DNA of 64,000 nucleotides, taken from the sequence record PQ821640. One strand, 5' to 3'. Within the stretch, counting starts at the first letter, position 1, and each line of letters starts with the position of its first letter. Both the position numbers and the translations under genes were made by a program. Source of the stretch: Escherichia phage SD2. Below the pieces are notes generated by a model that was not told where the DNA came from, did no database searches, and was given only the letters and a program-made list of their open reading frames with translations. Positions 11,999 through 12,428 of the stretch are shown piece after piece.

Positions 11999-12428
11999 AG
12001 ATTATTTAAATGGAATCGCTAGAGAAAATTTCTCTTTTCGCTCATGGTTTTCTCCTTCAAACTCTAGCGGTTCTTTTTAAGTGATTTTTTAGTTTATTGG
12101 AGATTCACTGCCTTAGTGTGAGCTAAAATCGAGGAGCCATCGAACTGTCTGATTAATGATTTGCGAATCATTATAGTTTTAAGACCCCGGCAGTTTTATG
12201 GTGTACCTCTTGAATGTGAATGATGACGGGTTTATGGTTATCCTGGTCGTTAAATATCCAAAAACCTATGTTCCCCTTGAGGGCTTGCGCAGGCAATGCC
12301 AATAAGTCCTGCATTTTCATTTAAAAGAGAATTTATAATGGAAAAAGATGAACTTAAGTATGCTAAGCCTCTGGCTTCTGCTGCACGAAAAGCAGTTCGT
12401 CACTTTGTGGTAACACTGAAGTAATTTA

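Follow-up and report, generated by a model that had tools for sequence, protein, structure and literature searches.

Sequence comparison of a noncoding island in the tRNA array of a phi92-type coliphage indicates a native spacer joined to an acquired T-even segment

Introduction

In the tRNA array of Escherichia phage SD2, 430 bp without an obvious gene (positions 11999-12428) separate tRNA-Gly from tRNA-Gln. What does this island consist of, where does it come from, and does it encode an RNA? To answer these questions we analyzed a stretch of 64,000 nucleotides of the phage (sequence record PQ821640; hereafter the window, whose positions are used throughout). An earlier note, made from the letters of this DNA, had treated the island as one noncoding unit with palindromes, which might encode a small RNA or a processing or regulatory site, or might be the scar of a lost mobile element. 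Judged by its alignments, the island is instead a composite of the native tRNA-Gly/tRNA-Gln spacer (91 nt) and a horizontally acquired 332-bp segment of T-even DNA. The idea of a scar has thus to be turned around: 332 of the 430 bp are DNA that was gained, 100% identical to the RB27-type region and precisely missing from empty sites in relatives.

Results

Composition of the island

By BLAST the window was assigned to the genus Justusliebigvirus (phi92-like coliphages, subfamily Stephanstirmvirinae), and 621 bp around the island showed 99.4-100% identity to the phages phi92, PD114, PD06, muut, ESCO9, phiWec187, arall and AV123. The island sits within the phage tRNA array between two genes identified by ARAGORN:

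11924-11998, + strand: tRNA-Gly(UCC), left border of the island (ARAGORN, Rfam)
12430-12504, + strand: tRNA-Gln(UUG), right border, intact (ARAGORN; Rfam 61.4 bits)

As previously stated, the stretch between them lacks a tRNA, by ARAGORN as well as by the Rfam tRNA model. There is no credible gene; all frames are short. The 28-codon frame at 12338-12424 exists and is lengthened to 42 codons by an upstream ATG at 12296, which makes it the longest frame of the + strand. The proposed Rfam scan gave no match of any Rfam 15 covariance model in the island, even at E<=10, nor in the T-even intergenic region described below at E<=1.

Hundreds of T4-type phages matched 12090-12437 at approximately 99% identity, always as two pieces (BLAST). 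Positions 12093-12341 correspond to RB27 from just past the rIII stop to the 30.9 start, i.e., to the whole rIII-30.9 intergenic region (249/249 identical, a figure that counts 13 shared repeat bases), and 12342-12424 are identical to the last 83 nt of RB27 rIII. The segment is composed as follows:

12090-12105, + strand: left direct repeat TAGTTTATTGGAGATT, left crossover zone, consisting of the native TAG and 13 bp common to T-even phages (repeat search, alignment)
12106-12341, + strand: T-even rIII-30.9 intergenic region in full, up to and including the start codon of 30.9, ATGG (alignment to RB27)
12340-12341, + strand: permutation junction, GG microhomology of 30.9 (ATGGCAAAAC) and rIII (CAGGAAAAAG) (alignment to RB27)
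12342-12424, + strand: 3' end of rIII, last 27 codons and stop (alignment; residues identical to T4 RIII 56-82)
12338-12424, + strand: chimeric 28-codon open reading frame (ORF; MEKDELKYAKPLASAARKAVRHFVVTLK), which the phi92 annotation starts at the upstream ATG (12296) and names gp113 'rIII' (ORF list, alignment)
12422-12437, + strand: right direct repeat TAATTTATTGGAGATT, right crossover zone, whose last 8 bases are the 5' end of tRNA-Gln (repeat search, alignment)

In T-even phages the rIII tail is followed by TTTATTGGAGATT, the intergenic region and the ATGG of 30.9. In the window the order is TTTATTGGAGATT, intergenic region, ATGG, rIII tail, a second TTTATTGGAGATT and the rest of tRNA-Gln. 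Compared with T4, the T-even segment is therefore in circularly permuted order, and a 16-bp direct repeat stands at either end. The two copies lie 332 bp apart and are identical at 15 of 16 positions; the single difference is an A for G, 16 nt upstream of tRNA-Gln. The internal join reads ATGG/AAAAAG (in its longer form ATAATGG/AAAAAGATG) and comprises a microhomology of 2 nt. The sequence TA[G/A]TTTATTGGAGATT follows the rIII stop in T-even phages and spans the 5' end of tRNA-Gln in phi92-type phages.

Hallmarks of a transposon were not detected: the insert ends have no terminal inverted repeats and there is no transposase. An insertion sequence or a miniature inverted-repeat transposable element was rejected on these grounds, and because the 16-bp repeats pre-exist in donor and recipient and only one copy per genome occurs. 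We also considered that the common 13-mer might be explained by the segment past the rIII stop being a relic of the 5' half of a tRNA-Gln gene. This was dropped as well, the similarity beyond the 13-mer being marginal (P 0.04-0.10).

Empty sites and alleles

A synthetic empty site, from which one repeat copy and the insert had been deleted, was used as query. It matched approximately 35 Justusliebigvirus genomes as a single 519-bp piece at 98-99% identity (alia, VivaForever, BME3, PHB05, inny and others); the alignment reads ...TTTTTTAGTTTATTGGAGATTAGCCTAG..., with one repeat copy and nothing missing or extra. Relatives from other genera of the subfamily, namely Klebsiella phage phi1_175008, phAPEC8 and Citrobacter phage Tr1, are also devoid of the insert. 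Thirteen sequenced phages carry it, with one to three private substitutions per copy. According to the records, insert-bearing isolates come from several laboratories and countries (Denmark, France, Japan, USA), to which phi92, presumably from Germany, may be added. Because copies from different laboratories bear private substitutions, the insert is not an assembly artefact. The permuted junction occurs in IMG/VR only on phi92-type contigs and among sequence records only in Justusliebigvirus; among 944 matches no T4-type record has it, and these records all match in two pieces. The comparison with relatives that had been suggested thus gave a separate result for each part of the island: the native hairpin (see below) is kept across the Stephanstirmvirinae, and the insert is present in some Justusliebigvirus phages.

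A second allele of 374 bp was found in four records named 'Campylobacter phage' (A145, MG065645; A150; C3; A110a), which are flagged UNVERIFIED. These phages belong to Justusliebigvirus and are approximately 97% identical to this coliphage in the flanks; their assignment to a Campylobacter host is doubtful. The intergenic part of the allele is of the G9062/T6 type (287/293 identical, 43 extra nt) and has the same repeats and the same junction; in this group, a 1-nt deletion frameshifts the chimeric ORF. The simplest reading of the alignment would be one original insertion that was later converted by homologous recombination with another T-even phage. Alternatively, the junction may be recurrent and non-random.

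When the phages were ranked by identity to the window over 5 kb of the upstream flank, which gives a ranking and not a tree, insert-bearing and empty phages were interleaved. The insert therefore acts as a presence/absence polymorphism that is reshuffled in the genus.

The native spacer hairpin

Positions 11999-12089 constitute the ancestral spacer of phi92-type phages. Homologous spacers lie 3' of tRNA-Gly in the phages phi1_175008, phAPEC8 and Tr1 and on one IMG/VR contig. The following features were identified:

11999-12087, + strand: native spacer hairpin with a 25-bp helix, arms 11999-12024 and 12062-12087 (repeat search, minimum-free-energy fold, covariation)
12025-12061, + strand: apical region of the hairpin (alignment with relatives)
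12021-12035, no strand: palindrome with arms AGAGAAA and TTTCTCT around one A, a local feature of the native spacer (alignment: not kept in relatives)

Among six distinct Stephanstirmvirinae variants, which is a small sample, 95.3% of the cells of the 25-bp helix were paired, compared to 39-58% in slid controls, and 9 of the 25 pairs had changed on both sides. This covariation indicates that the native spacer encodes a long hairpin RNA maintained by selection.

The palindrome at 12021-12035 had been reported as perfect. It is present, yet its 7-bp arms flank one unpaired A; its AGAG instead lies opposite a distal CTCT in the long conserved helix. The 8-bp inverted repeat TAATGATT/AATCATTA was recovered at 12154-12161 and 12166-12173. 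Taken alone, the palindromes are weak signals. In 2000 dinucleotide-preserving shuffles of the 430 bp, at least two inverted repeats (arm >=7, loop <=10) appeared in 11%, and an arm >=8 in 8% (P ~0.1). Their significance comes from the comparison with relatives only.

Within the apical region, the 3' two-thirds (~12034-12058, core CTCATGGTTTTCTCCTTC) are nearly invariant and pyrimidine-rich; relatives differ in the first ~8 nt (12025-12032) and in the ~3 nt at the end. Read in reverse complement, the core gives a Shine-Dalgarno sequence plus ATG, which is why an IMG/VR scan with the 17-nt loop core retrieved unrelated ribosome-binding sites only; a longer pattern gave 6 true loci. A minus-strand mini-ORF in the loop was rejected, since its frame and length vary across the alignment. 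A role of the loop as an antisense regulator was unsupported, with no convincing target in the window or among core E. coli genes. The only near-match in the window, with two mismatches, was marginal (equalled in 4 of 100 shuffles): the ribosome-binding site and start of an 88-aa gene just upstream of the tRNA array (AAGGAGAAAACTATGAC, 9803-9819, + strand; gene at 9815) are complementary to the invariant loop at 15 of 17 positions. Matches to the loop in E. coli (22/23 at E=2) were spread over 512 of 5426 genomes, without a core target. Furthermore, the pyrimidine-rich loop (AATTTCTCTTTT, 12027-12038) is complementary at 11 of 12 positions to the T-even 30.9 ribosome-binding region of the insert (AAAAGAGAATTT, 12323-12334). 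This may be chance, given the anti-Shine-Dalgarno-like composition of the loop.

Modules of the T-even intergenic region

In T-even phages the stretch between rIII and 30.9 is built of modules: module A (~100 nt), a variable middle segment and module B (128 nt upstream of the 30.9 start). The middle segment is absent in T4 and RB27, measures 43-50 nt in T6 and Mosigvirus and ~150 nt in LZ9; HY01 has no module A, and CT01 is without most of it. Across Tequatrovirus, Mosigvirus, Dhakavirus and Gaprivervirus, 86.9% of the columns of the intergenic region were invariant, against 74.5% for rIII and 63.5% for 30.9. Indels of 1 nt mark the region as noncoding, and ARAGORN and Rfam called no tRNA in its variants. 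No homolog was found in 5,426 E. coli genomes. In the insert the modules occupy the following positions:

12131-12209, + strand: module A, conserved structured RNA element, 79 nt (RNAalifold, covariation)
12154-12173, + strand: apical hairpin of module A, loop TGCG, corresponding to the 8-bp inverted repeat (repeat search, covariation)
12210-12337, + strand: module B, the 128 nt that precede the 30.9 start of T-even phages, almost without variation (predicted hairpins ~12221-12252 and ~12282-12300)

The structure of module A was predicted by RNAalifold on nine variants from four T-even genera and the Vequintavirinae, again a small sample. Of its 28 predicted pairs, 98.4% of the cells were paired (slid controls: 33-62%) and 7 pairs were compensatory, and one further variant added compensation. 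Four helices are predicted. In the outer one, GAGG pairs with CCUC; the second is a long stem, interrupted by internal loops, that is made up of GCCAU/AUGGU, a short stretch GA..A/UUU and ACUGUC/GGCAGU; the remaining two are the apical 8-bp hairpin and a side hairpin of 3 bp. The apical helix TAATGATT/AATCATTA, which holds one G-C pair, is changed to TAGTGATT/GATCACTA in A7_1 and to TATCGATT/AATCGGTA in L158. Module A is not a plain terminator, because the covarying structure engages in base pairs even the UUUUAU run that follows the outer stem. In T-even phages, module A is under purifying selection. Module B was too invariant for a covariation analysis. Compensatory pairs together with noncoding indels were thus found in the native hairpin (6 sequences) and in module A (9 sequences). 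The suggestion of a small RNA or processing site is hence plausible, with the amendment that the island contains two separate covariation-backed structured elements.

Module A was also found outside the T-even phages, namely in two phages of the Vequintavirinae, A7_1 (L137, 1478-1645) and W70 (L138). There it lies in an unannotated gap, immediately followed by a tRNA-like sequence and tRNA-Met, and is not accompanied by an rIII remnant; A7_1 also bears the first 50 nt of module B. These copies are 80-87% identical to the T-even versions and exhibit the compensatory change of ACTGTC/GGCAGT to ATTGTC/GACAAT. Since the homology starts and stops at the edges of the structured element, we argue that module A is a self-contained unit. 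By sequence, the same noncoding cassette seems to have been transferred independently to a tRNA region here.

The literature searched on rIII/30.9 transcripts, phi92 gp113 and T4 noncoding RNAs yielded no description of the T-even intergenic region and no usable data. The extra middle segment of LZ9 (~560-700) and CT01 holds ...TCGAACCCGGAACC..., which looks like a tRNA T-arm in reverse complement; neither ARAGORN nor Rfam calls a tRNA there. Two GenBank fragments, FN868251 (LZ9) and FN868250 (LZ1), cover the rIII-30.x region; our guess is that they come from the Krisch laboratory.

Transcription signals

One strong promoter candidate, the likely origin of a transcript through the island, was detected upstream of it:

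11883-11912, + strand: sigma-70-type promoter, TTGACA, 18-nt spacer, TAGAGT, with TG, upstream of tRNA-Gly (consensus scan)

It matches the consensus at 10 of 12 positions and was the top site in 11500-13000. The loop of a hairpin, AGCCTC/GGGGCT, just past the stop codon of the upstream gene, contains its -35 hexamer; stem-loop and promoter together (11868-11912, + strand) form an arrangement reminiscent of the PeSL (promoter/stem-loop) cassettes of T4-type phages. Consensus scans of 11999-12428 detected neither sigma-70 promoters nor terminators, and no rho-independent terminator (G+C-rich hairpin plus U tract) was found in the island. In module B the scan gave no sigma-70 consensus, and inspection by eye disclosed no match to the T4 early, MotA-box middle or TATAAATA late consensus. 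Because the promoter lies upstream and such signals are missing inside, a transcript should read through the native hairpin, modules A and B, the rIII tail and tRNA-Gln. The insert, which is in sense orientation, is thus probably transcribed as part of the tRNA precursor. The right repeat gives back to tRNA-Gln the 13 nt with which its native leader ends, so that no effect on RNase P cleavage is expected there.

Other features of the array

A second presence/absence insertion was identified further downstream. An HNH ORF (12973-13356, + strand; Pfam PF01844, E=3.6e-5) lies between tRNA-Met (12845-12923) and tRNA-Ile (13450-13525), and in phi92 the same two tRNA genes are just 146 bp apart. VEcB-type relatives possess a different HNH gene between tRNA-Gln and tRNA-Pro. 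These putative homing endonuclease insertions resemble the island in being present or absent among tRNA genes of the same genus. They differ from it in that the island encodes no endonuclease and has ends formed by homology-derived repeats. That a double-strand break by an HNH enzyme triggered the repair event at the island is speculation. In addition, the Rfam tRNA model gave 40 bits (above gathering) at 10463-10541 (+ strand), where ARAGORN was silent, and a weak, sub-threshold tRNA-like match (22.9 bits) lies at 13381-13441 (+ strand), just 5' of tRNA-Ile.

Discussion

How did the T-even segment enter the tRNA array? The alignments make it probable that it was integrated at the 5' edge of tRNA-Gln by a short-homology route, likely through a minicircle. 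During a co-infection, a segment of ~332 bp from a T-even phage (Tequatrovirus, RB27-type), reaching from 85 nt before the rIII stop to the 30.9 start, would have been joined head to tail via the 2-nt GG microhomology, giving a minicircle or a tandem duplication. A circle could then recombine with the phi92-type genome at the 16-bp near-identity. One crossover with the circle would leave the permutation, the flanking direct repeats and an intact tRNA-Gln, in two events altogether; the attraction of this route is that it explains these three features together. Arbiol et al. (2010, PMC2839356) demonstrated minicircles of 400-1500 bp, excised from plastic regions of T4-type genomes, and proposed that they serve as transfer vectors.

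Several points weigh against this reconstruction. The putative circle is seen as a footprint only, and its junction, placed within coding sequence and with no more than 2 nt of microhomology, differs from PeSL-to-PeSL exchanges. The second allele with the same junction demands a later gene conversion by T-even DNA or a recurrent junction, and the interleaved ranking of insert-bearing and empty phages means that a single origin needs later recombination or loss within the genus. Co-transcription is a prediction from sequence signals, and the one to three private substitutions per copy are too few to reveal selection on the insert in phi92-type phages.

Moreover, the same product can be obtained without a circle. 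In a T-even donor, 332 bp might have been duplicated in tandem at the GG/AAAA microhomology, and this donor might then have recombined by a double crossover at its two copies of TTTATTGGAGATT; or a replication end might have switched template three times, from phi92 to T-even, to upstream T-even and back to phi92. Permutation and direct repeats would be identical to those left by a circle. T4 readily forms tandem segmental amplifications between short homologies, the tifA amplifications of Srikant et al. 2022 reportedly being of this type. However, the duplication junction is borne by none of the T4-like records among the 944 matches, and two crossovers within 13-16 bp of homology, or three switches, are needed in place of one crossover. 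We regard these routes, taken together, as possible but rather unlikely, and rate a circle somewhat above tandem duplication or template switching.

The proposed integration of a T-even minicircle into a phi92-type genome may be compared with the PeSL minicircles (Arbiol, Comeau & Krisch 2010, PMC2839356; Comeau et al. 2014, PMC4122927). These are circles of a few hundred bp from hyperplastic T4-type regions, for which a role in horizontal transfer was put forward. Common to both are a cassette flanked by common sequence after reintegration and an origin in a plastic region, as rIII-30.x is among these. The permuted order and the duplicated recombination sequence were found here as for a PeSL cassette, as a footprint only; promoter/stem-loop boundaries and a complete ORFan cargo were not found, nor was such a consensus inside the insert. 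The junction does not lie between promoter/stem-loop cassettes; over 2 nt of microhomology it joins the interior of rIII to the start of 30.9. Furthermore, the homology used is 16 bp beside a tRNA gene, the cargo is noncoding DNA with a gene fragment and not an ORFan, and the recipient belongs to another subfamily (Stephanstirmvirinae).

Whether the insert does anything for its recipient is a second question. On balance we consider it a tolerated passenger, a view that we hold with fair confidence, and whose RNA element may retain its T-even activity. A useful insert is a less favored, tentative alternative. In that case the T-even RNA (module A and/or B) would be kept in the tRNA operon, be excised by tRNA processing and act there as in T-even phages; it might, for instance, aid processing or stability, bind a protein or serve as a decoy. 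The structural selection on module A speaks for it, as do the conservation of the T-even intergenic region beyond that of its flanking genes and the diverged, compensated module A upstream of tRNA genes in A7_1 and W70. So do the sense orientation of the insert within the tRNA operon, its persistence in 13 phages and after allele replacement, and two of the three private substitutions of phiWec187, which change G-C to G-U in predicted stems. On the other hand, ~35 of ~55 genomes of the genus manage without the insert, and HY01 and CT01 show that module A is dispensable. Sense orientation has a 50% chance of arising anyway, the substitutions are too few for measuring selection in the recipient, and neither Rfam nor the literature searches pointed to a known function.

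The native hairpin and module A may be compared with two groups of known RNAs. RNase III processing hairpins are known from T7-type early transcripts and rRNA operons; there is no sequence model for RNase III sites. They are imperfect helices of 20-30 bp with internal loops between precursor units, and the geometry of such substrates (an imperfect helix of at least ~20 bp in a precursor) is matched, as geometry alone, by the 25-bp native helix and by the 28 pairs of module A. The native hairpin differs in its invariant apical sequence and in a covariation that exceeds the need of a cleavage site. The T4 tRNA cluster carries the stable RNAs species 1 and 2 (rnaC/rnaD), whose function is unknown. 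These are likewise non-tRNA structured RNAs between tRNA genes, co-transcribed and presumably released by tRNA-processing nucleases. We found no relationship to them by sequence or Rfam; the native hairpin consists simply of 25 bp of stem capped by a large conserved loop, and module A stems from a non-tRNA locus of T-even phages.

The chimeric rIII-tail ORF is most likely a by-product. That the 28/42-codon ORF (phi92 gp113) acts as a truncated RIII-like lysis-inhibition peptide is very improbable, even though the 30.9 ribosome-binding site and ATG are fused in frame to the last 27 rIII codons and the frame is intact in most insert-bearing phages. Only residues 56-82 of RIII are present (27 of 82 residues); what lies upstream of the junction comes from the intergenic region and is unrelated to RIII, and a full-length RIII (~82 aa) is not contained in the insert. 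The ORF has no Pfam domain, is frameshifted in the A145 group and is missing from most of the genus, and the head-to-tail join at GG makes such an ORF anyway. The phi92 annotation names gp113 'putative rIII', RefSeq (NC_023693) propagates it as 'lysis inhibition; accessory protein', and the T-even intergenic region is labelled '1,4-alpha-glucan branching enzyme' in several genomes (ZN18, bov9_1, KMB42). By sequence, the labels of both gp113 and the intergenic region look like annotation errors. The analysis thus corrects the databases on two counts: gp113 of phi92 is no rIII gene, nor is the T-even intergenic region a glycogen-branching enzyme.

Finally, an ancestral island lost by the empty phages, or an assembly chimera from T4 contamination, is hardly credible: the direct repeats could drive precise deletion, so that some empty sites may be losses, as the interleaved ranking would allow, but the insert contains a T-even gene fragment, is 100% identical to T-even DNA, is missing from the outgroup genera and occurs in isolates of different laboratories with private substitutions and as a second allele.

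The locus thus provides a base-pair-resolved footprint of DNA exchange between the T4-type and phi92-type coliphage families via just 16 bp of homology. Its topology is as expected of the T4-type minicircle vectors, which had previously been shown only inside the T4-type group, and the exchange would be of a short-homology, minicircle-type modular kind between families. The second allele shows the patch as a landing pad for continuing T-even recombination. Two apparently undescribed conserved RNA structures were exposed, the native hairpin and module A. The latter is a covarying noncoding element downstream of T4 rIII that is absent from Rfam, more conserved than its neighbours and has entered the tRNA regions of two other lineages. 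As T4 is among the best-studied genomes, this unexplained conserved RNA is directly testable there. It is tempting, if doubtful at present, to regard the rIII-30.9 cassettes (modules A and B) as undescribed, strongly conserved noncoding RNAs that move as units between unrelated myovirus families and settle in tRNA operons, from which tRNA processing would release them; the window would then represent a capture with a minicircle footprint beside a native RNA with an anti-Shine-Dalgarno-like loop. If this were true and both RNAs functional, phage tRNA arrays would be expression platforms for mobile regulatory or counter-defence RNAs.

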